Shown here: positions 1-26,823 of the stretch, piece by piece | Numbering within the stretch: position 1 is the stretch's first letter | How the letters are laid out: every line of letters starts with the position of its first letter | From: a virus | Lineage: Duplodnaviria > Caudoviricetes | Virus record (IMG/VR): IMGVR_UViG_3300031689_000044 | Location: 1-27,175 of that record | Length of the DNA: 27,175 bases | Reading direction: 5' to 3' (one strand) | Notes under the pieces: generated by a model | What the model was told of the DNA's origin: nothing | Seen by the model: only the letters and a program-made list of their open reading frames with translations | The model's database searches: none | Program-made: the position numbers and the translations under genes

Positions 1-2
1 AT

Positions 3-617
3 GCTATCATGCGTGACACAGGTAGTATCAAAGGTTACGTAGCTGTCAAAGGTAAAGGTAACTTCAGGTACGGTATCTCTGAGGACTACAAGGGTAACCG
101 TAGTAAGACACCTATGGATCCTAAGGTTAAGGAAAGACGGGAAGCAGTGACAGAGTACGCATGGGAGACTGGATGTTTTAAGTCTGATGATTGTGAAGCA
201 GATGACATTGTATCCATATGGGCACAAGAAGCTTATGAAGCTGGTGAGCACTACGTCATAGCACACATCGATAAAGACATTGATATGGTTCCGGGTTGGC
301 ACTACAACTTCAACAAGAAGACCCAGTACTTCATTGATGGTGACACAGGTCACTATAAGATGTGTATCCAGATGCTGACAGGTGACAGTACAGATAACAT
401 ACATGGACTTAAAGGTATCGGCCCTAAGAAGGCTGAGAAGATATTAAAAGACGTACCGACAAGCGACATGCTGGAGACCGTTGCCAACGCATGGCGTGAC
501 CATCATCCTCGTGAGTGGAAGGAGAAGCTTGAGACTTGCTGGAACCTACTGTACATGCGCAGGGACTGGAACGGGTTTAAGAGATTAACTATTGAAGAGG
601 TGTTTGCTGATGAGTAG
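3..617 (+). CDS. 5'-3' exonuclease / flap endonuclease (T7 gp6 / T5 D15-like), N-terminally truncated by window edge
   Basis: Motifs EADD, HIDKDIDM and LTGDSTDNIHGLKGIGPKKA (H3TH/helix-hairpin). Frame is open to the left edge (GCT ATC ATG), so the true start lies upstream. Confidence 0.9.
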   Translation, partial: AIMRDTGSIKGYVAVKGKGNFRYGISEDYKGNRSKTPMDPKVKERREAVTEYAWETGCFKSDDCEADDIVSIWAQEAYEAGEHYVIAHIDKDIDMVPGWHYNFNKKTQYFIDGDTGHYKMCIQMLTGDSTDNIHGLKGIGPKKAEKILKDVPTSDMLETVANAWRDHHPREWKEKLETCWNLLYMRRDWNGFKRLTIEEVFADE

Positions 618-909
618 GGTTAGCTGGAAGAGAGTAGGTGAGTCTGTGGAACTACATAAAATAAAGATAATCACGGTACATGATAAATCATGGCTGCATT
701 ACTACGAGTATGGTGTGGAGTCTTGGTACGATGATTGTGAAGGTGATACAATGCCATCTGAGTGGGGCTTCTGCCTACAGATGGAACCTATATCCGAGTC
801 CTTACGTTCTCTGCTTAAAGCAGCTGGTATGCGTGAGGATGATAGTTACAAGGGTGATTTAAATGAGTTTATTGAAATAGTGAAAAAGGATACTAATTAT
901 GATCGTTAA
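610..909 (+). CDS. Hypothetical phage protein (99 aa)
   Basis: ATG at 610 follows GAGGTG and overlaps the end of the exonuclease gene; fits tight gene packing. Confidence 0.7.
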   Translation: MSRVSWKRVGESVELHKIKIITVHDKSWLHYYEYGVESWYDDCEGDTMPSEWGFCLQMEPISESLRSLLKAAGMREDDSYKGDLNEFIEIVKKDTNYDR

Positions 910-1057
910 TATTGGAAGTTACAAAGTGGATGGTGTTGAGCTAGTAGTCTGGGAAGAGTGCCATACTGCATTCATGATGATGGAGAAGAGGATTGAGGAC
1001 TTGGAGCACATGGTTGTGGAGTTAAGTGGCGAAGTAGAAAGTGCGGCTATGTCATGA
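899..1057 (+). CDS. Small hypothetical protein (52 aa, MIVNIGSYKVDGVELVVWEECHTAFMMMEKRIEDLEHMVVELSGEVESAAMS), not in the ORF track
   Basis: AAGGA upstream of ATG 899. Fills the gap between genes exactly, and its stop overlaps the next start as ATGA (1054-1057). Confidence 0.7.
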   Translation: MIVNIGSYKVDGVELVVWEECHTAFMMMEKRIEDLEHMVVELSGEVESAAMS

Positions 1058-1539
1058 GTCTAGGACACTGGTCTTATGCTGGAGAACCATTCGAGGTTGA
1101 TGATTACTTCGGATTCGTGTACCTTATAACTGTGACTGTACCTGATGGAAACCCTATCAGATACATAGGTAAGAAGCAGTTCCACTCTTATAAGAAGACT
1201 AAACGAGACAAGGAGTCTAATTGGAAGAAGTACAGCAGTTCCTCTAAGCACATTAATGAACTCATAAAGGGTGGCTCTGAGCTTACCTTCGAGATCATTC
1301 AATTGTTTGCAACCAGAGGTGGACTATCAGCAGCAGAATGTAAAGTTCAATGGTACTTAGATGTACTTACGGAGAAATGTCCCGAAGGGATCCCCTTGTA
1401 CCTTAACAGACAGATAGGTGCAGTTAAATTCATACCTAAAGAAGCTATATCAGATGAAACTAAAGACAGACTCAACGAAATCTACAGAACCGGAAGAGTA
1501 CTTATCGAAGCCAAAGGAGAAGAAGCAGCAGAGACTTGA
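1054..1539 (+). CDS. GIY-YIG family endonuclease (free-standing, Seg-like)
   Basis: GFVYLIT...YIGKK motif, ESNWKKYSSSS, and conserved E (AAE) and YLN downstream. Confidence 0.8.
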   Translation: MSLGHWSYAGEPFEVDDYFGFVYLITVTVPDGNPIRYIGKKQFHSYKKTKRDKESNWKKYSSSSKHINELIKGGSELTFEIIQLFATRGGLSAAECKVQWYLDVLTEKCPEGIPLYLNRQIGAVKFIPKEAISDETKDRLNEIYRTGRVLIEAKGEEAAET

Positions 1540-1606
1540 TTACAAGATCAAAGCTAGCACCAGACGTATAGACACTAAGTCCTATAAAGAAGACAGGTGG
1601 AACTAA
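1454..1606 (+). CDS. Possible small basic protein (50 aa)
   Basis: Its stop forms a TAATG junction with the primase start and it bridges the 1540-1605 gap, but it overlaps the endonuclease by 86 nt and has no clear SD. Confidence 0.35.
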   Translation: MKLKTDSTKSTEPEEYLSKPKEKKQQRLDYKIKASTRRIDTKSYKEDRWN

Positions 1607-3231
1607 TGAGTGAATCATTCACCAAACACTATCCCTGCTTCAAGTGTGGGTCATCAGATGCAGTAGCCTTATGGTCCAATGGGCGAGGTAAGTGCTTTGC
1701 ATGTGACACACCTGCATTCTTAGATCAGTATGATGACACAGTTAAATCAAAGTTTAAACCAAGTAACCGACAACAGGATTATGATATGAGTGGCGAATCA
1801 CTCCAAGACATCAGTAACTACGACACAGCAGGTGTTCGTGAACGTAACCTAACCAAGACAGCATGTGCAGTGTATGATATGAAGGTGGCCTATGATGCCT
1901 CTGGAGCTATCACCACACACTACTACCCATACACAGTTAAAGGTAAGGTAGTTGCATGTAAGAAGCGTACACTACCCAAGGAGTTCCGAGTAGTTGGTGA
2001 GTTAAAGCATAAGGATCTTGAGTTATTCGGACAGTCTAAGTTCCAACCGGGTGGCCTGAAGGTGATCATAACTGAAGGTGAGTTAGATGCCATAGCAGTG
2101 CAGCAGTCTATGCTTAACAAGTATAAGCGTACGTACCCTGTGGTATCCCTACCATCCTCAAGTAACATGAAGATCCTTGTGGCTAACAGAGAATGGCTCA
2201 GGTCATTTAATGAAGTCATACTAATGTTTGATCAAGATGAGGCTGGTGATAAGGCAGTAGGTGAAGCAGCTAAGATCATTGGCTGGGATAAGACATTGGT
2301 GGCTACCCTAAGTGCCAATGACCCTTGTGATTCTACTCCCGAAGAAATCATGTCTTCTGTCTTCAATGCACGTAAGTATACACCTGCCTCCATCGTACGA
2401 GGTGAAGCTATCTGGGATGCATACATTGCACGTAAGGATGTGCAGTCAGTGCCATACCCCAAGTGTCTCCAAGGACTCAATGATAAGCTTGACGGTATGC
2501 GTAAGGGTGAGATTGTACTGTTCACATCAGGTACTGGCTCAGGTAAGTCAACAATGATCAAAGAGATTGTACTGGAGATCGAGGAACAGACCGAGGACAG
2601 CATTGGTATGGTATCTCTCGAGGAGTCCATAGGGGATTCTGCAGAGAAGTTCATTAAGATGTTTGCACCTAAGGACCCTACTCCTGATCAAGAACGTAAG
2701 GCTTACGAGAAGGTCTTTGGTAATGAAAGATTGATACTACTTGACCACAACGGTGCAGTCTCTGACTCCAGTCTAATCGACCAGATCGAGAACTTGTGTC
2801 TGTTAGGTTGTGAGTATATAATCTTAGACCATATCACAATAGCAGTATCTGAAGGAGCCGGAGGTAAGACTGGTAACGAAGCTATCGATGCAATAATGTC
2901 TGATCTACTTAAGGTAGTTAAGAAGCATAATGTATGGCTAGGTTTGATCAGTCACCTGAGGAAGTCTCAGAATGGTAAATCATTTGAAGAGGGTTACCTA
3001 TCCTCCATAGATGACATAAAGGGTTCAGGCTCGATCAAACAGATCAGCTTTGATATAATTACATTCTCACGCAACTTAGTGGCAGAAGATGAAGATGAAC
3101 GGAATACAATTAAACTCAGAGTACTTAAGTCCAGATTTACAGGACGCACTGGAGACTGTGGTTCAGCATACTATGACACAGGAACAGGAAGACTCAAGGG
3201 ACAAGAGGACTTCCTCGACTACACTGGATAA
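1606..3231 (+). CDS. DNA primase-helicase (T7 gp4-like)
   Basis: Zn ribbon CFKCGSSDA...CFAC; TOPRIM ITEGELDA and FDQDEAG; Walker A GTGSGKS; ILDHI, HLRK, DIKGSGSIKQ and KSRFTG. AGGTGG precedes ATG 1606. Confidence 0.97.
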   Translation: MSESFTKHYPCFKCGSSDAVALWSNGRGKCFACDTPAFLDQYDDTVKSKFKPSNRQQDYDMSGESLQDISNYDTAGVRERNLTKTACAVYDMKVAYDASGAITTHYYPYTVKGKVVACKKRTLPKEFRVVGELKHKDLELFGQSKFQPGGLKVIITEGELDAIAVQQSMLNKYKRTYPVVSLPSSSNMKILVANREWLRSFNEVILMFDQDEAGDKAVGEAAKIIGWDKTLVATLSANDPCDSTPEEIMSSVFNARKYTPASIVRGEAIWDAYIARKDVQSVPYPKCLQGLNDKLDGMRKGEIVLFTSGTGSGKSTMIKEIVLEIEEQTEDSIGMVSLEESIGDSAEKFIKMFAPKDPTPDQERKAYEKVFGNERLILLDHNGAVSDSSLIDQIENLCLLGCEYIILDHITIAVSEGAGGKTGNEAIDAIMSDLLKVVKKHNVWLGLISHLRKSQNGKSFEEGYLSSIDDIKGSGSIKQISFDIITFSRNLVAEDEDERNTIKLRVLKSRFTGRTGDCGSAYYDTGTGRLKGQEDFLDYTG

Positions 3232-5335
3232 CTCCGCTGGTATAGTCAGCATCACGGAGTACATAAAAGAAAGATGTGAGGGTAATACCTTCCGTGGTAG
3301 ACCTCCAGAGGGAGCCAGACTGGTGTCTTCAATGATACCTTATGGCTATACTTACGAGAAGCTAACTGTAAGGGCCGTAGCAGGGGCTGTGGCAGCTTAT
3401 CAGAAGTCCCGAAGGTCATCATCAGCACCCTTTAAACTAACCGTTACATCGACTGTGATAGGCTTACAGGTGCTGTCTGCTTTAGGCGTACTAAACACTA
3501 ACCATCAGGAGATCTTAGCTGTTGGTGATCTATACTTAGAAGCACTACTTCAACTGGGTTATATACACATTGAAAGAGAGTACTCAGGGTACAGAGCACC
3601 TTACATAATTCAACTAATGGACACATGGTCGGAGCTTGGAGATCTCCCACCTGAGTACGAGAGGGAGACACTGATTGGTACCTCCTTCACACCACCTAAG
3701 GACATAACATCACTACGTAATGAGTTCACCAAACGTCCATACATAAAGCGCATGAGTTCAGAGGAGGACTTTAAGCAGCTTATAGGAGCACCATTTATCA
3801 CTGCTCTTAACAAGCTACAACAAACACCTTGGAGACTTAACAACACACTAGCCAAAGCCTTAGAGACTAACCTCGGATTGTTCATAGATCTTGAGGACCA
3901 GTCAATCAAAGCTAAGTCAAAGGCTATTGAGATGAAGTTTGTCATTGCAAAGATACATGCGGTAGGGTCTCACGACTTCTACCAAATGGTTGAGTGTGAC
4001 TACCGAGGTCGTGTGTACTACACTGAACCCTTCTTGAACTTCCAAGGGTCTGATGTATCTAAAGGACTCTTTGAGTTTGCAGATTCTAAGGCTATGGACA
4101 CTGCAGGGTACCGATGGTTATGTATACACACAGCTTGTTCCTATAACCAATCATATGAACTAGAGGAACTACCAACATGGGTAACAGCGGACTATCGAAC
4201 CTATCTGCAAGAAGAAGGGCTCTCTACCATATCAGTAGACAAGATGACCTTAAAGGACCGAGAACTGTGGACCCTAAACAACCTCGACTGGATCAACCAA
4301 TTAGCGGATGGCTTGAGCTTCAGAACAGAAGCAGAAAAGCCCGTTAGTTTCCTTGCATGTTGCTTGGACGTCAGTGGGTATAACAAAGCTAGGGCTAATC
4401 GTACTGTACATATGAGTCGATTACCTATACCTGTTGATGGGAGTAACAATGGATGGCAACATCTGGCAGCTATATCTAAAGACAAACAAGCTGGTGAACT
4501 GGTTTCTCTCGTACCTAGTGAGATACAGAAGGACTTCTATGTCCAAGTTGCCAAGCGTCTGATAGACAGGATGCCTGACTGGTTTAATGAACGTAAGATC
4601 CCAATGAAAGCTATCCGTAAAGGTATAGCAAAGCGTGGCTCTATGACAAGGGCATACTCAGCAGGTCAGAAGAAGATTGGTGCTAATATGTACTATGACT
4701 GCAAGGTAGAAGGCTATGACAAGAAGTACAATATCACTGAAGATGACTGTACCCCTCTGTCAAAGCAACTTATACTTGCTATCAACGACACCTGCGTAGG
4801 CCCCTTAAAGACCATGAAGTTTATTCAGAAGATGACAGACCACATACTCTCAACAGGTGAGACATGTACACAGTGGACAACTCCCTCGGGATTCCCAGTG
4901 TTATATGAGGTGTGGCGTCAGAAGAACATCACAGTACGCAGTACCATACGTGGTCTTGGGCAGATAGGTCACAGCATTAAGGTACCATACATCACACCTA
5001 GTGGTGACTTGATACCATGCAGGAGATCATTTGCATCTGGATGTAGCCCTAACTTCGTTCACTCAATGGACGCAGCTCACATGGCTAAAGTTATCCAGAG
5101 CTTTGATGGAGACTTCGGTGCTATACATGATTCATTCTCGACTCATGCATGTGATGTAAATAAACTAATAGACCACACCAAGTGGCAGTTCGCTATGATC
5201 TACAACAGTGAGAACTTCTTCACAGTCATAGAGAACATGCTACTAGAAACCCGAGAGGGTTACACACTTAAACAACCAGAGCTGGGAACCTTAGATATAT
5301 CTGAGATCCTGTCGTCTGATTACTTCTTTTGTTAA
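3173..5335 (+). CDS. Single-subunit DNA-directed RNA polymerase, T7/T3 family (short, about 720 aa; start uncertain, ORF open from 3089)
   Basis: DYRGRVY, motif A PVDGSNNGWQH, motif B RKGIAKRGSMTRAY, WTTPSGFPV, PNFVHSMDAAH, motif C IHDSF, and C-terminal DYFFC (compare T7 DFAFA). Confidence 0.97.
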   Translation: MTQEQEDSRDKRTSSTTLDNSAGIVSITEYIKERCEGNTFRGRPPEGARLVSSMIPYGYTYEKLTVRAVAGAVAAYQKSRRSSSAPFKLTVTSTVIGLQVLSALGVLNTNHQEILAVGDLYLEALLQLGYIHIEREYSGYRAPYIIQLMDTWSELGDLPPEYERETLIGTSFTPPKDITSLRNEFTKRPYIKRMSSEEDFKQLIGAPFITALNKLQQTPWRLNNTLAKALETNLGLFIDLEDQSIKAKSKAIEMKFVIAKIHAVGSHDFYQMVECDYRGRVYYTEPFLNFQGSDVSKGLFEFADSKAMDTAGYRWLCIHTACSYNQSYELEELPTWVTADYRTYLQEEGLSTISVDKMTLKDRELWTLNNLDWINQLADGLSFRTEAEKPVSFLACCLDVSGYNKARANRTVHMSRLPIPVDGSNNGWQHLAAISKDKQAGELVSLVPSEIQKDFYVQVAKRLIDRMPDWFNERKIPMKAIRKGIAKRGSMTRAYSAGQKKIGANMYYDCKVEGYDKKYNITEDDCTPLSKQLILAINDTCVGPLKTMKFIQKMTDHILSTGETCTQWTTPSGFPVLYEVWRQKNITVRSTIRGLGQIGHSIKVPYITPSGDLIPCRRSFASGCSPNFVHSMDAAHMAKVIQSFDGDFGAIHDSFSTHACDVNKLIDHTKWQFAMIYNSENFFTVIENMLLETREGYTLKQPELGTLDISEILSSDYFFC

Positions 5336-5345
5336 GGAAACTAAT

Positions 5346-5543
5346 ATGAACAATGTAACACAATTCCCAGACAAGTACGTGGCAGAGAACAACATGCTGC
5401 AAGACTTAAACAACCTAATAGCCAAATACAATGGTGAGATGACCAATGTGGCAATGCTGGGGTGCTTACAGGCATCTTCTAACTTTGTCTTCCTGTCTAT
5501 TGCAGAGTCAGCTATCTATGACGAGGACGAAGCAGATGTATAA
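5346..5543 (+). CDS. Hypothetical protein (65 aa)
   Basis: TAAGGA SD before ATG; overlaps the next start. Confidence 0.75.
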   Translation: MNNVTQFPDKYVAENNMLQDLNNLIAKYNGEMTNVAMLGCLQASSNFVFLSIAESAIYDEDEADV

Positions 5544-5868
5544 TATCTTTGAAGAACTGGAAGAGAAAGTAATTGACTGGGCTCACATCAAAGGGATCCT
5601 TGGGGATCTCGTTGGTGATCATGACCTGAGGGAACGTAAGTTGAAACAACTAGGTAAGTTTGAAGAGGAGTCTGTGGAGTTCATGGAAGCAGTGTACTCT
5701 AAGGACATTGATAAGGTACGTGATGAACTTGGTGATGTGTTAGTCACCCTGACAGTTCAGGCAAACCTTTGGGGTCTGTCACTCACAGAGTGTATGGACG
5801 AAGCATATAATAAAATAGCTGTACGAACAGGTCGTATGGTAGACGGAGTATTTGTAAAAGATGAGTAA
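5536..5868 (+). CDS. MazG-like nucleotide pyrophosphohydrolase (110 aa)
   Basis: KFEEESVEF...DELGDVLVTL acidic motif and AYNKIAVRTGRMVDGVFVKD tail typical of phage MazG-like proteins. GAGGA precedes ATG 5536. Confidence 0.85.
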   Translation: MYNIFEELEEKVIDWAHIKGILGDLVGDHDLRERKLKQLGKFEEESVEFMEAVYSKDIDKVRDELGDVLVTLTVQANLWGLSLTECMDEAYNKIAVRTGRMVDGVFVKDE

Positions 5869-6115
5869 TGATAAAGTATCACACAATATAGTACCCGGTA
5901 TTGACGACATGGAGTACGTTGAGATGTTTAATCTTGACCCTAAACTTGCGTATACACCGGAGATCAATGAAGCTATCCTGAGTAAAGTATGGGATAACAA
6001 CTATGCAGGTGCAGTTGCTGAAGGTCTCTCAGAGGCAGAAGCTATGGCTCATGCTGAGGCTCAACGAGTATCAGGACGAATGACAGTAGCTAAGGCTATT
6101 GAAGACAAGCAATAA
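5861..6115 (+). CDS. Hypothetical protein (84 aa)
   Basis: Overlaps the MazG-like stop; last gene before the terminators. Confidence 0.7.
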   Translation: MSNDKVSHNIVPGIDDMEYVEMFNLDPKLAYTPEINEAILSKVWDNNYAGAVAEGLSEAEAMAHAEAQRVSGRMTVAKAIEDKQ

Positions 6116-6152
6116 AATAACCCCCAAGTATACGTAATGTATACCTGAGGGT
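6111..6152 (-). terminator. Intrinsic terminator for the minus-strand virion operon
   Basis: Minus strand reads ACCCTCAGGTATAC-ATTAC-GTATACTTGGGGGT-TATTTTATT. The 14-bp stem has two non-Watson-Crick pairs that are G-U wobbles only on this strand, followed by a U-rich tail. Confidence 0.75.
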
Positions 6153-6155
6153 AAC

Positions 6156-6201
6156 GCCCCCTTGGTATCCTTAATTGGATTCCTTGGGGGCTTTCTTTTT
6201 T
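6156..6201 (+). terminator. Intrinsic terminator for the plus-strand replication operon
   Basis: GCCCCCTTGGTATCC-TTAATT-GGATTCCTTGGGGGC (stem with three U-U mismatches) followed by TTTCTTTTTT. Confidence 0.75.
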
Positions 6202-6218
6202 ATTATCTATTGTTATGT

Positions 6219-9200
6219 TTAATCAGCTTCACGTAGTGAATCCAACGTATACTGATGTACATCCTTAGCATTAGCTCTGATCTTCTTACGACCTTCCTTT
6301 GCATGTAACCGAAGTGCCTCAAAGTTATTCGCAAGGTTCTTAACACCAGAGTCGTTAAAGACTGCAAGTGCTAGCTGGTACAACTCCTTGTTTGTAATGT
6401 ACGCCCAAGGTGCATCCCCGTACTGACTTGATTTCTTATCAAGCATAGACAAATATGCAGCAGCCCTATCAGCAAGTTTAGGATGGTAAATAGAAGTAAG
6501 ACTACTCATACCACCCATCTCACTATAAACATACTTGGCATGGTTAGGGTCTGCAGGAGATCCCGAAGGGTTACCTTCTGCCAATGCACGTAGGTTCGCA
6601 AGGCCTCTGTGAGTCGCCTCACGGATACCCTTCTGCATCTCACCTATGAGGTCATAGTTTAATGTTGTATCTAACCAAGCATCGTTTATAGCCTTATACG
6701 CAGACCTGAATGAACCTGCATCTGTAATGATCTCGTCATAGACAGGTATGAGGTAAGGGTTTCTTCCATTCTGGGAAGCACGAAGCTTCTGAAGGGACTT
6801 GCCAGTGACTAAGGCAACAATAGATGCAGCATCAAAACCAATAGTGGTCTGAGCTAACACACCCTGACTGGCACCTAAACCTGCAACACCACTCTTCTCG
6901 TACAAGGCTGATGTATCTGACTCATACGTTGATGTAACAGTAGACTTACTGGTTCCACCTTCACTGATATAGATACCGTCATTACCTGCTACAAACTTCT
7001 TCTTGTTAGCAACATCAAAGAACTGCCCTTTCTCATTCTTCCTACGAGTACGAGTTACAGCAGCAGACGCTAACTTAGCCTCAGTCATAACAGTACCACT
7101 GACAGACGTTTGTTGACCTGTTGGTTGTGTGTAGATGATAGGTTCATTAACAAACCCAGTGACCTTAACATAATTCTTAAGCATATTAACATAGTTAACA
7201 ACATCAGAACCTACAGTAGCCACCAGATTACCCATAAGAGCATTATTAAGAATCTTTATTGCCCTGTCAGTGCCTAGTTCACCAGCGATAAGTGCTATCT
7301 CTGAGTTAGGGTTTGAGATAACTGCCTTAACAGCATACGCTTTCATGCTCTTTAAGTCTTGACCATAAACAAAAGTCATAAGAGGGGGCTTAAGGAAGTT
7401 CGCCTTATCCTCAGTGGCTAACTTAATCAATCTTGTGATCTTCATTGCATCCTCAGGACTAGATTTACCTATTTCAGAGACAGGGTTTGTCAATAAGTTG
7501 TACTTAAGTAAGTCACGAGGGTCACCGGTAAGACCTTCAAACTCAGCCAATATCCTTGGGGATCCTTTAGGTCTATACACACCAACACGAGGCATCATAT
7601 GTTCCTGACCTAACTGAGCCATAAGGCCTGCAAGTCCGTTAGCAATACCATCTTGCGCAACCATACGCATCTGAGTTGTGTACGGCTTACCAGACCTATA
7701 GGATTGCATATAACGTGCAAGCTCTGTGGTGGCTTCTAAGACGTTAATGAACTCATCAGGATGTGCTTTAGCATTGGCATCAATGAAGTCCCTAGTGGCC
7801 TGTGAAAGGTCAGCTAAGGTTGCTTTGAAGTCTTCAAGCTCTGCATTACGAATTAAGTTATCAACACCCATCACACCCTGAGGTGTGGCCTCAAGTTGCT
7901 TAAGGTCTCTTATAGCATTAGCATCTTCAAATGCCAGTAACCAATGCCCAACCTCAACACCTATGGCCTCAAGGGATTTAAGCTCAGGGTCATTACCAGA
8001 CTGCATACGTTTGACTGTATCACGGTACACCACATCAGGCTTCAAACCACCTACCTTAAGCAGGAAAGAAGCTATAGATACAACGACACCATAGTCTTCA
8101 TCTGTATTAGACATGGGCCTGATACTGTAAAGATGTGGTGAGCCAAGTACCTGACGTACCATCTTGTGGTTCTGAGGGCTTATCTGATACTGATGCATAG
8201 TGATACGTGTATTACCCAACTGTCGTTGAAAGGTAAAGCCTATCTGGTCATTCTTGTAGTGAGCTAACGCATTAAGAACTTCCAGTTGGTTAGTAGCATG
8301 TTTCTTATACATACCATTCTGCCACTCAGGAGTCCTTGCAAGCTCTAAGAAATCAGACAGAACATTGACATCCATTATCAATAGCATATTATCAGTATCG
8401 TTACCAGAGTATCTCTGTGCAGCTGCAAGCTTCTTCTTTGCTTCGTTGAGTTGATACTCAATCTCTACAGGTATGTTACGTATCTTATCAATACGCTTAT
8501 GCCCAACATCAAAGAAGTCTGATACAAAGGTAAGGTGGTTGTTAGCTGAGCCTTCAGTAAGATCTACAGAGGATGCTTCCTCTAATGCAGATATACCAAA
8601 GCCAAACGCAGCCTTACCCCGTATACCACCAACAACACTCTTAACATTAGAGTAGAACTTGATTGCATCAGTGATAACATCAACCTGACCCATGTCATAC
8701 TGAGACCCAGTTGTCTTCTTGGTACGTGTACTTGAAGCGTACTGTGGCTGACCAGCCTTAGAAGTCTCCCCAATAATCGGAGGTACTCTGAACTTAGGTG
8801 TGGATACCTGACTGCTCCGTAACTGCAATGCCTTACGACCTGTAGGTGTTAGGTTGTAAACTATAGGTTGGGCCTGACCAAAGGCCATGTCACCAACAGC
8901 ATCAATGTAGGATGGGTTGGCTTCTTTATAAGCATGTAGTGCATTGAAACCTATGAGTTGATTAGCTTCTCTTGAGAACCTCTTAAACAACTTAGGGTTA
9001 ACTTGAGTATCCATGCCACCTGCACGTACCTGACGGAAACCCTGCCATGCATCAGACACAGACCTACCTATGTCAGTAACAGTCCTCGACTGACTATCAT
9101 TTGCAGCGTCCAGTATACCAATCTGCTTCATAATATCTTCAGACAGTGTGTCAATAACACCTTGTGGTACAAAGGAACCACTGTTGTCAAGCATGGCTTC

Positions 9201-10025
9201 CACTACTACAAATGCATTGATAAGGTAGTCAGGATCCATGCGGTACACCCTGTTGTCATGAGAAACAACAGATGCATCAAGTCCCTGAGGACCCACAAAC
9301 AAAGACTCTTGTGTTAGTGCATACCTTCCATCTTGATCTAAGGTTGCCTGACCCTCTGCAGGTGCCTTAAGGAACCCCATGTCAAGATCAAATACACTGG
9401 CTACACCCTTCTGTACCACTCCAAGACCACTTTCATACTCCGATTGAGCGACCTCAGGATCAGGAAACTTATCTGTATTCTCAAAGGATCTGGCAGTACC
9501 TAAGAGATCAAAGTCATTCTTCAGGCCTATCAGAGACCTTGCAACAACAGGGCCATTAACAGGGCCCCATATCTTCATAAGATCCTGAGGGCCTAAGTAA
9601 CCAGAGTCTAGCTCCGGTGACGATCCACCTAAGTCAAATCGTTGTTGCAATGACTGTGGTGCTTCTATCTGCTCCTGCCTTTGCTCTCTTTCCACAGGGG
9701 TCTGATTAGACTGCATGTACTCAGCTGGTACATCACCGAAGTCCATACTGGTCTGGTTAGGATCAGGTATAACACTTTGGTCAATGTCTGCGGAGGTAGT
9801 ATCGATACCACCCCATTGGACACCTTCGGGTACTGGCCCACCTCGTTCTGTGCGGGGTAGGTTTAGTTGCTTTTGTGGTGATGCGCTAAAAGGGGCAATC
9901 CCTTCAGGACCTACTTGTTCAGGGGCATTATCAAATATCCCTGCCCTCATAAGGGCATCAGCAGTGCCACTACTTAGACCTCTTTTAGGTCCACTTTGCT
10001 TTAGAGCTGTATACTTACCAGCCAT
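6219..10025 (-). CDS. Putative virion-encapsidated single-subunit RNA polymerase (N4 vRNAP-like, 1268 aa)
   Basis: Ordered motifs GNTRITM...SPQNHKMVR, motif A AQDGIANG, motif B KPPLMTFVYG, YTQPTG, TTIGFD and motif C PVYDEII. No Cys; sits in the internal-virion gene block. GGAGGT SD precedes ATG 10025. Confidence 0.82.
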   Translation of the reverse strand: MAGKYTALKQSGPKRGLSSGTADALMRAGIFDNAPEQVGPEGIAPFSASPQKQLNLPRTERGGPVPEGVQWGGIDTTSADIDQSVIPDPNQTSMDFGDVPAEYMQSNQTPVEREQRQEQIEAPQSLQQRFDLGGSSPELDSGYLGPQDLMKIWGPVNGPVVARSLIGLKNDFDLLGTARSFENTDKFPDPEVAQSEYESGLGVVQKGVASVFDLDMGFLKAPAEGQATLDQDGRYALTQESLFVGPQGLDASVVSHDNRVYRMDPDYLINAFVVVEAMLDNSGSFVPQGVIDTLSEDIMKQIGILDAANDSQSRTVTDIGRSVSDAWQGFRQVRAGGMDTQVNPKLFKRFSREANQLIGFNALHAYKEANPSYIDAVGDMAFGQAQPIVYNLTPTGRKALQLRSSQVSTPKFRVPPIIGETSKAGQPQYASSTRTKKTTGSQYDMGQVDVITDAIKFYSNVKSVVGGIRGKAAFGFGISALEEASSVDLTEGSANNHLTFVSDFFDVGHKRIDKIRNIPVEIEYQLNEAKKKLAAAQRYSGNDTDNMLLIMDVNVLSDFLELARTPEWQNGMYKKHATNQLEVLNALAHYKNDQIGFTFQRQLGNTRITMHQYQISPQNHKMVRQVLGSPHLYSIRPMSNTDEDYGVVVSIASFLLKVGGLKPDVVYRDTVKRMQSGNDPELKSLEAIGVEVGHWLLAFEDANAIRDLKQLEATPQGVMGVDNLIRNAELEDFKATLADLSQATRDFIDANAKAHPDEFINVLEATTELARYMQSYRSGKPYTTQMRMVAQDGIANGLAGLMAQLGQEHMMPRVGVYRPKGSPRILAEFEGLTGDPRDLLKYNLLTNPVSEIGKSSPEDAMKITRLIKLATEDKANFLKPPLMTFVYGQDLKSMKAYAVKAVISNPNSEIALIAGELGTDRAIKILNNALMGNLVATVGSDVVNYVNMLKNYVKVTGFVNEPIIYTQPTGQQTSVSGTVMTEAKLASAAVTRTRRKNEKGQFFDVANKKKFVAGNDGIYISEGGTSKSTVTSTYESDTSALYEKSGVAGLGASQGVLAQTTIGFDAASIVALVTGKSLQKLRASQNGRNPYLIPVYDEIITDAGSFRSAYKAINDAWLDTTLNYDLIGEMQKGIREATHRGLANLRALAEGNPSGSPADPNHAKYVYSEMGGMSSLTSIYHPKLADRAAAYLSMLDKKSSQYGDAPWAYITNKELYQLALAVFNDSGVKNLANNFEALRLHAKEGRKKIRANAKDVHQYTLDSLREAD

Positions 10026-10040
10026 AGGGTTTACCTCCAA

Positions 10041-13000
10041 TTATTTCCATTGAGTAACTTCATATAGTCTATGTTTCATTGGGCCTAAAAACGGTAGACT
10101 TCCATAGAAACTCTTCATCATCTTAGCATCATCATCTTCAAAGTAGCCTTCAGCTATCCTGTAGATTCTCTCCACAGTTCCTGCTGCAGCTGCTTCACTT
10201 GCAACGTTATTCCATGTCCACTCTGTGAAGTCTTTACTACTGTTACCATATAGTGGTAGTAGCATTGGACTTCCTATGATACGCTCACCAGTACCTATAA
10301 GTCCGGAAGAGTAGATCATACGTAAGACCTTATCCCTGTCTGTCAAGTAGGGTGACGGTCCTCCATACTTAAGCTCGTCTTTCATAGCCTGAGACAGGAA
10401 TCCCATGAACAGCATTGTAGCTGCTGAAGCAAAGGTTGAGTATCGTAATCCCTTAGAGTACTTAACACCATCCCACAAACGTGGTAACTGGTTAGAAGTA
10501 AACGCTGAGATATAACCATTAAACTGAGTGAGTAACATTAGATGTTGGTTACTATACGGTATAGGTCTGTTGAATGCATCTGGCATAGGTACTGCTTGGT
10601 TAATGAACCGACCAGCCCCTATCAAGAAGTTACGTTCCCATGTGGCCTGATCAGCCTGTGACAAACCATCCCAACCAGATCTAGACTTCAAGAAGTTATT
10701 GATACGGGTGAATGAAGCTTTCTCAGAAGCTGTGAGCTCACGCCCATCCTTAACCTTCTTATTCAACTCTCCCATCCGCATTGTATCTTCATGCGTAAGG
10801 CTTGAGATATCAGGAAGACCTAGCATCTGGTTAGAGATACGGGTCATTGCTTCAACATCAATACCTAAGTCCTTAAGCATCTTACGTGATTCCATAAGCT
10901 CAGGTGTTGGCTCCTTGCCCCTGTAACTCATTATAATATCCATCTTATCAATCAAGAAGTCATTAAAGAATGCAGCTCGTATGTTACGGTGCATCTGTGT
11001 CTGATCTTGTAAGAAGTTAGACTTAAAGAATGCGTCTGCGATATGCTTAGTCAGCTGGTTAGTTTCAACCATACCTGTTGTGGTTGCTGCTCCTGTCTCT
11101 TGGAGACTAAGTCCGACCCTCTGGACAATAGTCTCAGGGGATCCAGCAAACATCCTACGGGGGTCTCCAGCTGAACGTGCATCAGGTTCCACCTTTGCCT
11201 TAGGTTTAACCTTAAGCCCTAGTTTCTCAGCTGCACCGGATACCCTAGTGATCTCACCAAGGTTAGTTGCGTAAGACGCAAGGGCTTTACCAGCTTGGTA
11301 GCCTGCAAGACCTATGTTATCAACAATGACTTTACGTGGTACACCATGAAACAGTAGTCCAACCTCAGGGAAAGATGAGACAGCTGCCAGACCTAAGCCT
11401 TGCATTGCAGTAAGTAAAGTCAGATATTTCTGAGCTGTCTTCAAGTAGTAACTGTCTATGCGTTTGTAGTTACCTGACTCAGCATTGATAAGGTTACGTA
11501 CATGGTATGCAGCCTCATCGAACTGAGCTGTAGCTTCAGCCTGACGTTGAGGATCATCACCTGCTTTAATCATAAGACCTTTGTATAGGTTACGGAAAGC
11601 CTGATCCATCACCTCACCATTACGACCAAGGAACTTCATATGAGTCTGATATCGTGAAGACATACGAGACACTTCCTCAACGTTATTGAAGAAGTCTTGC
11701 TCAAGGAACTCATCAAAGAGTGCATTGTCAGACAGACCGAGTGTACGTGATTCATATTCAGATGGTGTGATACCACCCTCCATCACGTTAAATTCCTTAT
11801 TGTCATCTAATACTGTGTCATTGATGATGTTCTCAGCGATCTTAGTTGCTTGGTCATGTGTCATACGATACTCTTTGGAAAGTAACTGAATGAACCTAGC
11901 CTTATTAGCATCTATATACTCACGCTTGAACCCCTTATGCCTGAACATGAAGTCTTGAAGGTTATGTATAAGACCCTTACCGGCCTTTGCATTAACCTCG
12001 TTAGTCTCTTCAAAGACCCTGTTAATCATTGCTTCGTACTTAGTCAACGAACCTTCCAAGGCTTCCCTGTTCTTACGGTACTTTGGATCTACCTTATCCC
12101 AGTTGATCTTAGACATAGCCTTACGTACACCCATGTTCTTCACACCCTCTCGGTTCTTACGACCTGTGATAGGTGCTAATACTTCTTTGTAGAAAGCATT
12201 AATCATATCGGATGCATATATCTGCTTAGATGTAGAGCTACCTAAAGGGTCACTGTCAAACTGCTTATAGTGTTCAACTGCTTTACCTGAAAGAGTTTCA
12301 TGTGAAGCCTGCTTAACCCTCTGGTACTCTGCAAAGTTACTTCCATGAAAGATACCATGCCTTGTGTAACCAAATACACTTAACAATCTGGCAGCTTCAA
12401 CGTCAACCTCAGCCAGCTTAATCATTGCCCGTGATGCAGAAGACCTGAAGAAGTTCTGGGGGTTCTTTATGAATGCCCAGATATCTTTAGCTCCAAGGAA
12501 TCCCTCGGGGTTGTTCTTCCTGTGGTCATTTGCAGCACCTTCCATCATACTATCTTTGGATGTCTTACGACTTCCGTCTTTATTGTATGCAGTGCCGCTG
12601 TAAGCTTCGTTATTTAAAGCTTCTTTCTCAACACGACTACTTGCAGCAGCCTGTAAATCATCAGCCCATTCATCATTAGAACGTACCTTACCATGCTTCT
12701 TAAACTCTTCTTCTTCGGCATAGTCAAACTTAGTGTTGTACATGTCAGCCTTAGATGGGTCTAAGTAATCAGCAGTTGAACTCCAATCACCTACATCAAA
12801 TGCAGTCTTGGGTATTGACAATGCGCCACCCATGATACCGCCAGCAGCTATTGAGTTTATCATACGGTTCTCAACTTCATCGAAGTTCCACTCTTTATCA
12901 GAGCCAATAACAGCAGCTGTGTACTGTGTCATTTCCTGAAGTAGTTCCGTACTACCTTCAAATACAGCACCTCTTGAAAGCTGACCAGCAACCCTCTTAA

Positions 13001-14363
13001 ATAAAGCACCCTTGACTATCTGATCTTGAGCAAACTTAAACCCATCTTTGGATAGTTTAGCAAGCTCTAGTTTAGCCATTGAAGCTATCTGCTTCTCAGC
13101 GGCAGCTTCTGTCATACCTTTAGCGGTTAGGTTCTTTATAAGTTCTGCCTTACCACTACCAGTCAGGAACTGAGAAGGACCTATGATACCCTTCAGTCCT
13201 AATCGATCAGCAACCATCATCAGTGCACCAGCACCAATAGCAAGTGGTAGGTTCTTAGTACCTATGTCACCTTCCATTTCATCTAAGACTAAGCCAGTGT
13301 ACATCATACCTGTTGATGTTGCTCCTATGGCACCTACAGTGCCTACAACAGCAGCTCCTGCACCTAAGGCTCCAACCACAGGCGCAGCTGCCATACCTGC
13401 AACAGTCATTGTCATGTACGGTAGTGAAGACCCGAAGATAGTTGCAAGGTAATCTGTGGAGTCATGGAAAGAGGACCAGTCAACCTGAGTTATATCTGAT
13501 TGAAGCATAGGCATCTCTGCCATTTCCCTCTCAGCTGTGGCGACATTAGATGCAAAGTAAGTCTCAGCATCTTCAAACCCAGCTTCATTAGCCAGCTTCC
13601 ACATAACCTGATCAAAGCCTTTACCGATACCCATCCATGAGACATCCCAGCTTGCACTCATTGGAGAGTACGCCATACCCTCCGAGTCAGCCCCATCCAC
13701 ACGAGTACGAATACCCTTGTATAGATCTGGGTTAGCTGCGTACTCTTGCATGTTGAACGCCATAACCTTTTCAATAGGTATGCCACCAGAGTGTGCTGTC
13801 TCAGCAGAACGAAGTAACTTAGCAGCCTTCTCCCAATCTGATAACTTATCAAAGTTAGGGTCACGCATCTCACGTTGATATACACCACCCATATATACAT
13901 CAGACCCATAGGGATCTGTAGTCTCCTTAGACTTACCCATATATCCGGGGAGTACCATACCAGATGCAAGTAGCATGTCTGATAATGCAACACCATCGGA
14001 GTCATATAGGTCACCCAGTGAACGATCATGTGTGTCAAGCTCGTCACCTGCGGATACCTTTGTGAATCCATTCCTAGTGGCAAGATCCCAGATGTATTGT
14101 GTTGCTAGTTCACCACCAACTTCACCATGTTTAAACCCAGCATCATCACCTTGAGTAATTAACTTGCCAACCTCACGGGTATCAACGTTACCGACACGAA
14201 CTCGTTGACCTGTCTTAAGGTTCTTAGCTGTATCTCCATCAATTAAGGCCCAATCGGAATCCCCAAGTCTATAGGAAGGTGCTTGAGATGATCCTACCTC
14301 ATCTCCAGTTTTGTAATCTTCAAAAACAGAAGACAAAGCCTCCATCGTATCATCTCTAAGCAT
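10041..14363 (-). CDS. Large internal virion / ejection protein (T7 gp16-like C-terminus) with N-terminal thermonuclease (SNase) domain, 1440 aa
   Basis: N-terminal IDGDT..VRVGNVDTRE..DTHDRSLG..LLASGM. Gly/Ala hydrophobic segments and EGSTELLQE; C-terminal QAVPMP..LLTQFNGY resembles the end of gp16. No Cys. Confidence 0.75.
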   Translation of the reverse strand: MLRDDTMEALSSVFEDYKTGDEVGSSQAPSYRLGDSDWALIDGDTAKNLKTGQRVRVGNVDTREVGKLITQGDDAGFKHGEVGGELATQYIWDLATRNGFTKVSAGDELDTHDRSLGDLYDSDGVALSDMLLASGMVLPGYMGKSKETTDPYGSDVYMGGVYQREMRDPNFDKLSDWEKAAKLLRSAETAHSGGIPIEKVMAFNMQEYAANPDLYKGIRTRVDGADSEGMAYSPMSASWDVSWMGIGKGFDQVMWKLANEAGFEDAETYFASNVATAEREMAEMPMLQSDITQVDWSSFHDSTDYLATIFGSSLPYMTMTVAGMAAAPVVGALGAGAAVVGTVGAIGATSTGMMYTGLVLDEMEGDIGTKNLPLAIGAGALMMVADRLGLKGIIGPSQFLTGSGKAELIKNLTAKGMTEAAAEKQIASMAKLELAKLSKDGFKFAQDQIVKGALFKRVAGQLSRGAVFEGSTELLQEMTQYTAAVIGSDKEWNFDEVENRMINSIAAGGIMGGALSIPKTAFDVGDWSSTADYLDPSKADMYNTKFDYAEEEEFKKHGKVRSNDEWADDLQAAASSRVEKEALNNEAYSGTAYNKDGSRKTSKDSMMEGAANDHRKNNPEGFLGAKDIWAFIKNPQNFFRSSASRAMIKLAEVDVEAARLLSVFGYTRHGIFHGSNFAEYQRVKQASHETLSGKAVEHYKQFDSDPLGSSTSKQIYASDMINAFYKEVLAPITGRKNREGVKNMGVRKAMSKINWDKVDPKYRKNREALEGSLTKYEAMINRVFEETNEVNAKAGKGLIHNLQDFMFRHKGFKREYIDANKARFIQLLSKEYRMTHDQATKIAENIINDTVLDDNKEFNVMEGGITPSEYESRTLGLSDNALFDEFLEQDFFNNVEEVSRMSSRYQTHMKFLGRNGEVMDQAFRNLYKGLMIKAGDDPQRQAEATAQFDEAAYHVRNLINAESGNYKRIDSYYLKTAQKYLTLLTAMQGLGLAAVSSFPEVGLLFHGVPRKVIVDNIGLAGYQAGKALASYATNLGEITRVSGAAEKLGLKVKPKAKVEPDARSAGDPRRMFAGSPETIVQRVGLSLQETGAATTTGMVETNQLTKHIADAFFKSNFLQDQTQMHRNIRAAFFNDFLIDKMDIIMSYRGKEPTPELMESRKMLKDLGIDVEAMTRISNQMLGLPDISSLTHEDTMRMGELNKKVKDGRELTASEKASFTRINNFLKSRSGWDGLSQADQATWERNFLIGAGRFINQAVPMPDAFNRPIPYSNQHLMLLTQFNGYISAFTSNQLPRLWDGVKYSKGLRYSTFASAATMLFMGFLSQAMKDELKYGGPSPYLTDRDKVLRMIYSSGLIGTGERIIGSPMLLPLYGNSSKDFTEWTWNNVASEAAAAGTVERIYRIAEGYFEDDDAKMMKSFYGSLPFLGPMKHRLYEVTQWK

Positions 14364-16712: not shown

Positions 16713-17398
16713 TACTTTCCTCCTGCTCCACCCTTACCACCAGCAACATTACCTGTGCTTTGGTTGGGGAGTCCTATTGGGTTGCCATTGCCAGACAGCA
16801 CTGGGCTACCTGCAGTATCCCTTAGGACATTAGCAGCTGGTGCTTGTGGTGCATAGTTAGGTCTTGTCATTGGACCAGTTGTTGGTCGTGTAAGGTCTAC
16901 AAATGCTGGATCAAATGAGGGTATTGTTGCCTCTTGATAATCATATGCAGGTGGTGGTGTGAACACACTAGGGTACGTACCATTAACAATCTGATCTGGA
17001 ACACGAACTGTAGGGTCAATAGCCGGAGTCAAGCCACCATTGAGTGCTGATAACTTCTCAAGGACACGTTGGTCTGCATTCATTGGTGCTGTGTACTCCA
17101 TTGGAATAGCAGCAGGTTCCCTACCATCTAATGCAACAGCTTGGCTGTACATGTCAGGTGGTACTCGACTATCAAGTGCAACAGCTTGCTGGTACATATC
17201 TGGAGTTTTATCTAATGCAGCAGCTCTTTGGTCTGCTTCCATCAATGCCATTTGTTGTTCAAGGTTGAACACTGGACTAGGGACACGGAACCCAGAGTCG
17301 AATGGAATCTTAACACCATTCTTATACTTAGAGGTCGCAGGGCGTACCTGTGTGTCATTACTTACTTTAGCGAAGTAATCTTCAATCTTCTTTGTCAT
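16712..17398 (-). CDS. Pro-rich hypothetical, probably internal virion protein (228 aa)
   Basis: GGAG SD; TAATG junction with the next gene; ends GGKGGAGGK. Confidence 0.6.
   Translation of the reverse strand: MTKKIEDYFAKVSNDTQVRPATSKYKNGVKIPFDSGFRVPSPVFNLEQQMALMEADQRAAALDKTPDMYQQAVALDSRVPPDMYSQAVALDGREPAAIPMEYTAPMNADQRVLEKLSALNGGLTPAIDPTVRVPDQIVNGTYPSVFTPPPAYDYQEATIPSFDPAFVDLTRPTTGPMTRPNYAPQAPAANVLRDTAGSPVLSGNGNPIGLPNQSTGNVAGGKGGAGGK
17126..17225 (-). repeat. 45-nt (15-aa) tandem duplication within the 228-aa gene
   Basis: PDMYQQAVALDSRVP / PDMYSQAVALDGREP plus a partial upstream copy (AAALD). Confidence 0.7.
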
Positions 17399-17402
17399 CT
17401 TC

Positions 17403-18155
17403 TTAATCTCCAGTTATTGTAGCCCAGAAGGACTCAAACTTATCTTTATGTTTCTTAGGTATCCTTTCTGTCACTTCTCTCTGAGGTTTACCACTCTGAT
17501 CACCGCCAAAGATACTATTAATGAAGTCATTAACAGGACTGAGAAACCCAGCATCAGCTTGTGGAGGAGCCTCCTGCGTTTGTTGAGGTACTTGTTGAGA
17601 TACTTGCTGCGTCTGCAACTGCTGACCAACTTGTATACTATTGATATCTTGTATTGAATTCAAACTTGCCAATTGCTGCACAGTCATCCCTGCATCGTTA
17701 GCTATCTTAGTCAGGTTGTCACCTGATTGAACTGTATACTGTTGACTATTAACTTGAGGTACTGGTTCTTCAATCGGTACTGGGACTGACCCTTCAGGTC
17801 TCCATCCAAACTGATCGAACTTACCAACATACTCTGAGGTCTCCGGTGGCATCTCTGTGAGATCACCACTAATAAACTTAAGCATGTTACCCGGACCCCA
17901 GTTGTAGGCTTGTAGTGTCTGCGTAGGTGTCCAGTCATACTGACGCTGCATACCAGCTAGGTAATCCCCAGCAGCCTTACGGGCCTGAACTGGATCTAAC
18001 GGGTCAAAGGCTTTAACACCATAACCCATGTCACTTACATACTGAGGCATGAATTGGTACTCACCTACAGCTCCTGCTGGAGAAACTGCGTCATTGTTTC
18101 CACTAGATTCTACCATACGGAGAGCATCAAGTAGCTCTGGGGTTATCCAACTCAT
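17403..18155 (-). CDS. Virion-associated lytic transglycosylase (SLT) with LysM domain (250 aa)
   Basis: VESSGN..AVSPAGAVGEYQFMP..AYNWGPG..ETSEYV (SLT) and YTVQSGDNLTKIA..QQLASLNSI..IQVGQQL (LysM). Confidence 0.93.
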   Translation of the reverse strand: MSWITPELLDALRMVESSGNNDAVSPAGAVGEYQFMPQYVSDMGYGVKAFDPLDPVQARKAAGDYLAGMQRQYDWTPTQTLQAYNWGPGNMLKFISGDLTEMPPETSEYVGKFDQFGWRPEGSVPVPIEEPVPQVNSQQYTVQSGDNLTKIANDAGMTVQQLASLNSIQDINSIQVGQQLQTQQVSQQVPQQTQEAPPQADAGFLSPVNDFINSIFGGDQSGKPQREVTERIPKKHKDKFESFWATITGD

Positions 18156-18167
18156 ATCTGTTTCCTT

Positions 18168-19811: not shown

Positions 19812-19825
19812 TATTGTTTAGTCCT

Positions 19826-20200: not shown

Positions 20201-20211
20201 ATAATGTCTCC

Positions 20212-22854: not shown

Positions 22855-22863
22855 AAGACCTCC

Positions 22864-24003: not shown

Positions 24004-24017
24004 GTTAATCTCCTTGT

Positions 24018-24791: not shown

Positions 24792-24805
24792 AGCTACTCC
24801 TTAGA

Positions 24806-26374: not shown

Positions 26375-26384
26375 TAGAGCCTCC

Positions 26385-26819: not shown

Positions 26820-26823
26820 ATCG

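Follow-up and report, generated by a model that had tools for sequence, protein, structure and literature searches.

A stretch of 27,175 nucleotides (nt) from a tailed phage (Duplodnaviria; Caudoviricetes; positions 1 to 27,175 of IMG/VR record IMGVR_UViG_3300031689_000044, here called the window) encodes two single-subunit RNA polymerases (RNAPs), which face each other across a gap of 883 nt. RNAP-A, on the plus strand, is a T7-type enzyme, and RNAP-B, on the minus strand, is a cysteine-free protein of 1268 amino acids (aa) that is predicted to have a single-subunit RNAP fold and resembles the virion RNAP (vRNAP) of phage N4. A sequence-only reading of this DNA had proposed such a convergent pair across about 0.9 kb, and this stands: both open reading frames (ORFs) are present, one T7-type by sequence and the other a polymerase by its fold model. 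We consider it probable that the two enzymes share the transcription programme, an injected RNAP-B starting at hairpins and RNAP-A serving the middle and structural genes. Here, we describe the two enzymes, the marks of an ejected protein on RNAP-B and the promoter-like motifs of longer relatives, and then weigh the proposed circuit against its rivals.

The two polymerases and their relatives

RNAP-B begins at position 10025, with GGAGG ahead of its ATG. Sequence searches of Pfam, the PDB and phage isolates returned no match for it or for its distant representatives, and phrog_414 gave a weak one (E 2e-7). Its affinity emerges from structure prediction: an AlphaFold model of residues 206-1268, built from 32 sequences (pLDDT 75, pTM 0.71), has T7 RNAP (E 1.2e-12) and N4 mini-vRNAP (E 6.5e-12, TMq 0.42-0.44) as its top Foldseek matches, followed by mitochondrial RNAPs (E range for these three groups 1e-12 to 1e-9); viral RNAP models are matched as well. 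VIA-align gives Z 16-21 to T7, N4 and mitochondrial RNAPs, with leading rows at Z 18-21 over 500-720 residues, and the longest alignments are those to N4 chains (682-721 residues). The sequence-only reading had called this protein a divergent vRNAP-like polymerase and had allowed that it might lack a polymerase fold; the model recovers one, and on this basis the single-subunit RNAP fold is almost certain.

The residues expected of an active enzyme are also in place, namely R607 (position 8207), D792 in motif A (7652), K879 and Y887 in motif B (7391 and 7367) and D1097 in motif C (6737). The first three motifs align to those of N4 by hhalign, and motif C was assigned by order and pattern. Among cluster representatives of at least 1000 aa (128 aligned from 150 clusters listed, shorter ones being dropped and a 98%-identical relative standing in for the window protein), R607, D792, K879 and Y887 are kept in 128/128 and D1097 in 127/128. 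A second set of 76 sequences has R607 and D1097 in every row, these being the only non-circular residues there since the locus scan used motifs A and B as patterns; the row of the cultured phage CRP-7 (see below) is poorly aligned at motif C. The sequences compared are only 14-38% alike, yet the catalytic aspartates are invariant save for that single D1097, and the ratio of nonsynonymous to synonymous substitution (dN/dS) against three close relatives is 0.20-0.27. Within ExDGxxxG, the motif A signature of N4-type virion RNAPs, the part xxDGxxxG is found in 128/128 and the E in only 51/128, the window having A. We regard RNAP-B as very probably an active enzyme. By profile search, its family comprises 281 clusters (50% identity) at E <=0.001 and 213 at 1e-10, mostly of 1060-1370 aa. 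One homologue (L070:6329-11398) has 1689 aa, about 400 above the usual, and profile matches of 1452-1681 aa also exist.

Kinship with the N4 enzyme is suggested by profile comparison, in which the RNAP-B family matches the N4 vRNAP profile with P 98.4% and E 8e-15 over 275 columns, including a common stretch after a TxxGR-like motif, whereas the RNAP-A profile reaches P 67.5%. In a quick tree of 36 cores, whose branches are long, all T7-like enzymes including RNAP-A fall on one side and RNAP-B, the CRP-7 protein gp33 and the N4 vRNAPs on the other (SH-aLRT 99), and RNAP-B is therefore not a recent duplicate of RNAP-A.

The pair also has a cultured relative, Roseobacter phage CRP-7 (MK613349), an unclassified podovirus with the same order of exonuclease, primase, RNAP (gp30), two small genes and the convergent gp33 and gp34. 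Its gp30 is 37.5% identical to RNAP-A, and its capsid protein is 52% identical to that of G001, a relative of the window of 59.8 kb (100% complete by CheckV; RNAP-B 86% and RNAP-A 91% identical to the window). BLASTP and hidden Markov model searches missed gp33, and only profile-profile comparison linked it to RNAP-B (family against family, P 96.4%, E 1.3e-9, motifs in register; 14% identity to RNAP-B itself). The gp33 family is cysteine-free in 32/33 members, and a relative 69% identical to gp33 folds as a single-subunit RNAP in its predicted structure. In CRP-7 the protein is annotated as hypothetical, and the passages seen of the description (PMC6918029) name only ORF30 as an RNAP.

RNAP-A matches PF00940 (E 5.6e-53), phrog_414 (E 1.7e-105) and T7 RNAP chains (E 3e-30 to 1e-29), and its family profile scores E 7e-38 against T7 and E 4e-10 against N4 RNAPII. 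It carries the DxxGR motif at 3998, motif A at 4433, motif B at 4616 and motif C at 5120, has a full-length specificity-loop region and evolves under a dN/dS of 0.09-0.11. Rather than a heterodimer like RNAPII (gp15 and gp16), it is one chain, more similar to the T7 enzyme, with its gene where the replication arm ends.

A convergent RNAP-A lies within 1.5 kb of RNAP-B in 56/62 loci, many of which are near-copies, and the remaining six end <=833 nt from the stop and are too short to show the pairing; the co-occurrence that the sequence-only reading had suggested checking is thus borne out. The two genes do not always travel together. Loci L026 and L027 have an RNAP-A 100% identical to that of the window but an RNAP-B only 31% identical, and a further relative (G002) has about 80% DNA identity with the window over the replication arm while its structural arm is common only in patches. 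Over the interval corresponding to window 3089-10025, loci L026, L027, L028, L030 and L031 range from 98 to 100% for RNAP-A and from 30 to 31% for RNAP-B. From these sequence comparisons, RNAP-B, probably with much of the structural arm, seems to have been swapped as a module between near-identical replication arms, the terminator described below being the apparent border.

Gene layout and marks of an ejected protein

The window is a phage fragment with two convergent arms, and its GC skew switches sign near 6 kb. The plus-strand replication arm runs from exonuclease through GIY-YIG protein, primase-helicase and RNAP-A to three small genes, and the minus-strand arm holds structural genes, with RNAP-B standing last. 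The features are as follows.

3-1539, plus strand: replication arm, end of a 5'-3' exonuclease gene, a 105-aa ORF and a GIY-YIG protein
1597-3231, plus strand: T7 gp4-type primase-helicase (phrog_239 E 2e-136; Toprim and DnaB_C), directly upstream of RNAP-A
3089-5335, plus strand: RNAP-A, T7-type single-chain RNAP, last large gene of the replication arm
5346-6115, plus strand: three small genes (65 aa; MazG-like; 84 aa) between both polymerases
6120-6203, both strands: back-to-back pair of hairpins, preceded by an A-run and followed by a T-run, predicted to be a bidirectional terminator
6219-10025, minus strand: RNAP-B, cysteine-free stand-alone vRNAP-like RNAP of 1268 aa, last gene of the structural arm
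10041-14363, minus strand: 1440-aa cysteine-free protein (phrog_6958, virion structural protein, E 3e-12)
14367-18671, minus strand: rest of the cysteine-free block, with proteins of 781 aa and 228 aa, a 250-aa SLT and LysM transglycosylase and a 167-aa protein
18674-27128, minus strand: upstream structural genes, with a tail chaperone, probable tail fibre and tail proteins and a 522-aa virion protein

A first mark of ejection is the absence of cysteine. RNAP-B and each of the five proteins encoded upstream of it have none, as compared with 14 in RNAP-A and 11 in the primase, and the relatives of RNAP-B have none in 120/128 and at most one in all 128. N4 vRNAP likewise has no cysteine in 3500 aa, and suppression of cysteine is documented for the ejection operon of Schitoviridae in passages of two papers (PMC11445570, PMC3915230). 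T7 gp15 and gp16 are also without cysteine, and its absence is therefore a mark of ejection and not of N4 kinship. In addition, RNAP-B is the last gene of this late-arm block, which has an SLT gene among the five preceding ones (a 250-aa transglycosylase; SLT E 1e-14, LysM E 8e-14, phrog_342 E 3e-15). The second polymerase had been described from sequence alone as an injected type, and the marks of ejection agree with this; judging from gene position and composition, RNAP-B is in all likelihood packaged in the virion.

Its 1440-aa neighbour is likely a large ejection protein. It has one hydrophobic stretch (321-348), its positional homologues are cysteine-free in 31/31 and it is homologous to CRP-7 gp34 (hhalign E 6e-46), while no homology to N4 gp50 was detectable. 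The sequence-only reading had termed it gp16-like, which holds as an analogy only: hhalign to T7 gp16 gives P 0.1 (a 31-sequence profile against a single sequence, which is weak for remote homology), and the protein has no SLT domain, SLT being a separate gene. The 781-aa, 228-aa, 250-aa and 167-aa proteins are likely ejected internal virion proteins; for the one block gene tested, homology to N4 gp51 was not detected.

The gap between the polymerase genes holds the three small plus-strand genes and the double hairpin. Both strands fold far more stably there than their shuffles (z −5.4 and −7.6), and the hairpins at 6120-6203 are predicted to act as a bidirectional terminator between the arms. 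A sigma-70 scan of window positions 1-12000 gave 18 sites against 22.7 expected.

The gp4-type primase-helicase named in the sequence-only reading is confirmed by its phrog_239 match. The start of RNAP-A, which that reading had placed at ATG 3173, is unsettled, as this codon is not conserved among relatives. The longest ORF (748 aa) overlaps the primase gene, and more distant relatives of about 697-701 aa start level with about 3236. In window 3089-3245, where relatives start, no ATG, GTG or TTG is conserved; a conserved CTG at 3224, which a purine-rich run precedes by about 14 nt, overlaps the primase end. The candidate arrangements are a start at CTG, an overlap of 143 nt and a frameshift fusion of primase and RNAP. 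Elsewhere in the window, the 105-aa ORF region (592-1053) is a small variable insert, which neither G001 and G005 nor related contigs of four marine RNA libraries (join 611-1060) contain, and the 880-aa probable tail fibre (20212-22854) has three 225-nt internal repeats and a glycine-rich C-terminal part.

Promoter-like motifs and the proposed transcription circuit

The sequence-only reading had suggested looking for two distinct promoter motifs. The window is without arm heads, and both were read from longer relatives, which are akin to each other and form about five clades. The first class consists of hairpins. G001 has three of the form GGAGCC-RAA-GGCTC ahead of its first replication-arm genes. 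The scan rule was set after these copies had been seen and with the N4 promoters in view, and was later compared with passages of a review (PMC4496689). Over 22 stretches (399 kb), 21 of which have an assigned arm, the hairpins lie 29 times on the template strand and 4 times on the non-template strand, and the intergenic ones do so 24 to 0; five of the 29 template-strand copies and all four non-template ones are inside ORFs. The 29 copies, found in 13/21 records, represent about five clades rather than 29 independent cases. The 3-nt purine loop and the C:G closing pair are conserved on the template strand. Shuffle controls gave a mean of 0.63 per 60 kb and a maximum of 3. With the GC limit relaxed by one, the scan gave seven matches in the first 50 kb of N4, three of them CC-N4-stem-GNA hairpins on the template strand at the left end, at 96, 565 and 4554, which we take to be P1-P3. 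A loose version of the pattern, run over all viral contigs, was set aside: its 91 loci were mostly single matches, about the number estimated for chance, and only the five multi-match loci, which repeat contigs already known, were taken seriously. A pattern search of 24 records gave five matches in four records, two on the wrong strand.

The second class is a T7-style 16-mer, WTWWAGTACCTTATA/G (the slash standing before the G), first spotted in five late-arm heads. At <=1 mismatch it occurs at 31 sites in 17/21 records, with arm borders set by hand, and 31/31 sites point in the sense of their own arm, 15 of them heading the structural arm (including the eight training sites) and 16 lying midway along the replication arm. 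Even at two mismatches, shuffle controls gave 0.58 per 60 kb. The motif ends in TATA/G, as in T7 phi1.1A/B. Neither CRP-7 nor the relatives with an RNAP-A 42-46% alike have it, and no promoter motif was found in Alteromonas phage V19 (see below) or in the most distant relatives. GGGGGT was considered as a late promoter and dropped for its scattered occurrence.

In G003 and G004, the replication arm reads hairpin, early genes, terminator-like hairpin, T7-style site (about 75 nt further on), middle genes, a second hairpin and then DNA polymerase through primase to RNAP-A. Throughout the clade of G003, G004, G009-G011 and G023, a hairpin stands just ahead of the DNA polymerase-exonuclease-primase-RNAP-A block, and RNAP-B could therefore make RNAP-A directly. 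In the clade of the window (G001, G005), by contrast, about 19 kb separate RNAP-A from the three hairpins upstream of it, the last of which is at G001 48701, and read-through or host RNAP must therefore bridge the gap.

In the circuit that we propose, RNAP-B would be made late, packaged and ejected together with the cysteine-free proteins. It would start at the replication-arm hairpins, probably with the help of host single-stranded DNA-binding protein (SSB) and gyrase, on which N4 also relies, before RNAP-A takes over. RNAP-A would initiate at the G of the predicted T7-style promoter, AGTACCTTATA/G, amplify the replication block together with its own gene and transcribe the structural arm from the arm head; in that arm a terminator-like hairpin follows the capsid gene. 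The sequence-only reading had assigned early genes to the injected enzyme and late genes to the other. The early part is retained here for RNAP-B as an inferred role; as the T7-type motif also occurs in the middle of the replication arm, RNAP-A probably serves middle and late genes and not late genes alone.

Three further features of the arm heads touch on these motifs. The outermost hairpin of G001 (49402-49430; L077:9402-9430) and that of G005 (574-595) overlap a near copy of the T7-style motif in the opposite direction, an arrangement by which RNAP-A could silence the first early promoter or provide primers for replication. The non-coding head of G001 between the arms (L077:9433-9881) has four 73-nt tandem repeats and five 11-nt repeats and is possibly a genome-end or origin region. 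Upstream of the head hairpin, G003 (12703-12981), G004 (19206-19484) and L094 (6739-7384) have one ORF or two, each of about 92 aa, behind a conserved CCCTAAGGGACTCTA stretch.

Several points weigh against the proposed roles. RNAP-B has neither a hydrophobic segment nor the N- and C-terminal domains (NTD and CTD) of N4 vRNAP, which PMC13492108 ties to membrane association and encapsidation. Its nearest kin are also not sharply defined: the VIA-align Z scores are tied, so that the structure search cannot tell N4 from T7 or mitochondrial RNAP, and a single T7-like Vibrio RNAP scores P 94.7% with RNAP-B, the N4 profile having only six sequences. Neither promoter motif is in the window, all promoter evidence coming from relatives; 8/21 records, mostly fragments, are without a template-strand hairpin, and CRP-7 shows neither motif clearly. 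As compared with the N4 promoter rules given in passages of PMC4496689, the hairpins have C and not G at −8, place the CC 1-2 nt further from the loop and in some copies have AAA loops. In G003, G004 and L094, a 92-aa ORF lies upstream of the head hairpin, and some sigma-70-like sites are present in the replication arm of G001.

The most serious rival shares the injected, transcription-starting RNAP-B and overlaps with the proposed circuit, differing only in how the gap is bridged: host RNAP would still be needed, most likely where the first RNAP-A of the window's clade has to be made, in the middle stretch, and full independence would be denied. We give it an even chance. Between the last hairpin of G001 and RNAP-A, terminator-like hairpins near the head add to the distance, sigma-70-like sites matching 10-11 of 12 positions occur at G001 −46932, −43944 and −43342, and N4 itself needs host RNAP for its late genes (passages of PMC4496689). 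These sites are unconvincing: they show no strand bias in the arm (six sense and six antisense at >=10/12), and G005 does not have those that match 11 of 12 positions near the SSB gene; moreover, the other clade has its hairpin right before the RNAP-A block. A programme fully independent of host RNAP is therefore a tentative proposal, above all for the window's clade, and we give it somewhat less than an even chance.

The remaining rivals would change what RNAP-B or the hairpins are for. That RNAP-B is an ejected motor pulling in DNA, or a primer-maker, with early mRNA made by host RNAP and the hairpins serving as entry or origin signals, is unlikely. A motor role has been proposed for the vRNAP of phage DEV (passages of PMC11445570), the head region has tandem repeats typical of ends or origins, and RNAP-B alleles only 31% alike beside an identical RNAP-A suggest loose sequence specificity. 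Yet the template-strand hairpins immediately precede genes, one of them internally before the DNA polymerase block, and near-identical hairpins accompany RNAP-B alleles about 28% alike to the window's (G025), so that a swap need not break recognition; motor and transcription roles are also compatible. It is improbable that RNAP-B is an ordinary cytoplasmic second polymerase or a structural protein merely keeping the fold. No packaging domain is recognised in it, but the contrast in cysteine content with RNAP-A, a gene that closes the cysteine-free block, expression with the late arm and the catalytic aspartates all speak against this reading. No more credit is due to the view that the hairpins are intrinsic terminators acting on RNA, which we rate marginally lower still: some copies in G001 and G005 do read as a stem-loop followed by UUUU on the sense strand, but so do the left-end hairpins of N4. 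In other clades, the stem is in most copies not followed by a U-run; the outermost copy of G001 precedes the first ORF, and the loop and closing pair are conserved on the template strand, as noted above. The proposed circuit, with RNAP-B starting at the hairpins, is what we carry forward.

Comparison with known systems and significance

The sequence-only reading had held that this genome is not organised like N4. This does not hold for the overall plan: N4 (Schitoviridae) also has two convergent arms, with the vRNAP gene last in the late arm, beside cysteine-free genes and facing the other arm. N4 gp50 (mini-vRNAP residues 998-2103; PDB 2PO4, 3C2P, 3C3L) has the single-subunit fold and motifs in common with RNAP-B as well as the lack of cysteine, and G001 and G005 share with N4 three hairpins with a 3-nt purine loop and C:G closing pair on the template strand at the head of the early arm. 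The differences are equally clear. RNAP-B stands alone with 1268 aa, whereas N4 vRNAP has 3500 aa including NTD and CTD, and identity is about 11-13%; passages of PMC10654107 give about 2800-3800 aa for N4-type vRNAPs with NTD, Pol and CTD. RNAP-B is paired with a T7-type RNAP of one chain, whose gene stands at the far end of the replication arm, whereas the second enzyme of N4 is an early heterodimer; the late arm is headed by a predicted phage-type promoter here and served by host sigma-70 RNAP in N4; the primase-helicase is T7-type; and the hairpins differ in stem sequence and spacing. By analogy, RNAP-B would work like the N4 virion RNAP, while it differs from that family in size and partner.

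With T7 and the phiKMV-like Autographiviridae, the genome shares the T7-type RNAP, the TATA/G promoter end, the gp4-type primase-helicase and, in G001, a gp2.5-like SSB. T7 has its genes on one strand, uses host RNAP for early genes and has no virion RNAP, and phiKMV-like phages are those in which the RNAP gene follows the replication genes. Autographiviridae have all genes on one strand, while here a T7-like RNAP gene is combined with two convergent arms. By the features tested, the genome belongs to neither Schitoviridae nor Autographiviridae. In G001, rIIA and rIIB as in N4 lie beside the T7 gp2.5-like SSB gene (43916-46779). Its capsid protein matches CRP-7 (52%) and then Venkman, Sulfitobacter pCB2047, Pseudomonas tf and NV1 (32-36%), with no N4-like phage among the best 25 of 301 matches; tf and NV1 are presumably LUZ24-like phages. 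A host search gave one weak match (E 3e-4), to a contig of a Sulfurovaceae metagenome-assembled genome, and this was not used. Contigs from RNA libraries, 90-95% alike, cover both RNAP genes with shares <0.2 and were not used as evidence for transcription, which contigs are unable to demonstrate.

The nearest precedents lie among phages with a vRNAP and an unusual partner. By 2015, nearly all known vRNAP phages had a heterodimeric RNAPII, according to passages of PMC4496689. The Alteromonas phages vB_AmeP-R22Y and PT11-V19, assigned to Schitoviridae, have a vRNAP of 2082-2083 aa at the end of the structural arm and a single-chain RNAP of 670 aa (passages of PMC11705849). In contrast to the pair described here, their vRNAP exceeds RNAP-B by 800 aa and joins the N4 vRNAPs in the quick tree, on a long branch, and their second RNAP, encoded at the early end, comes out near N4 RNAPII; they have a separate primase and helicase, and no such hairpin was found. 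In AltAD45-P1 to P4 (100-104 kb), the polymerase part of the vRNAP is separate, at about 1400 aa, beside a larger partner, and is described in passages of PMC3821669 as a fission of N4 gp50 with no second RNAP; it is set apart from RNAP-B by that description and by the lack of detectable homology between the 1440-aa neighbour and N4 gp50. In StenR_269, a large cysteine-free protein has only been guessed to be a vRNAP (passages of PMC10747016). Vibrio phage K437b g2 (L011) encodes two annotated, co-directional, cysteine-rich T7-like RNAPs (698 and 802 aa; 3055-5151 and 19428-21836), a different two-RNAP design.

A vRNAP beside a single-chain second RNAP is thus already known from R22Y and V19. 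For a compact vRNAP with a T7-type partner, the present analysis adds two oriented classes of promoter-like motifs, a proposed circuit, the apparent module swap and a cultured system in CRP-7. We did not find this compact pair described in the literature searched, which did not extend to supplements, including the CRP-7 annotation tables. The survey of hidden N4-like viruses, as passages of PMC10654107 state, removed proteins <2500 aa, which would exclude the RNAP-B family.

The compact form, with up to 281 clusters at 50% identity, is invisible to Pfam, and it comes with a T7-type partner, predicted promoters for both enzymes and a concrete proposed circuit that may not need host RNAP. Injected single-subunit RNAPs are usually treated as a mark of N4-like phages, and independence of host RNAP is, to our knowledge, so far known only from jumbo phages with multisubunit enzymes. 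It is conceivable, if somewhat doubtful, that a widespread group of podophages of 55-60 kb runs its whole programme with two single-subunit enzymes and no host RNAP; if true, host-RNAP independence would be achieved with two genes. RNAP-B would also reveal what the N4 enzyme could do without and still be packaged and ejected, could help to date the split between virion and T7-type RNAPs, and could offer new orthogonal RNAP-promoter pairs.

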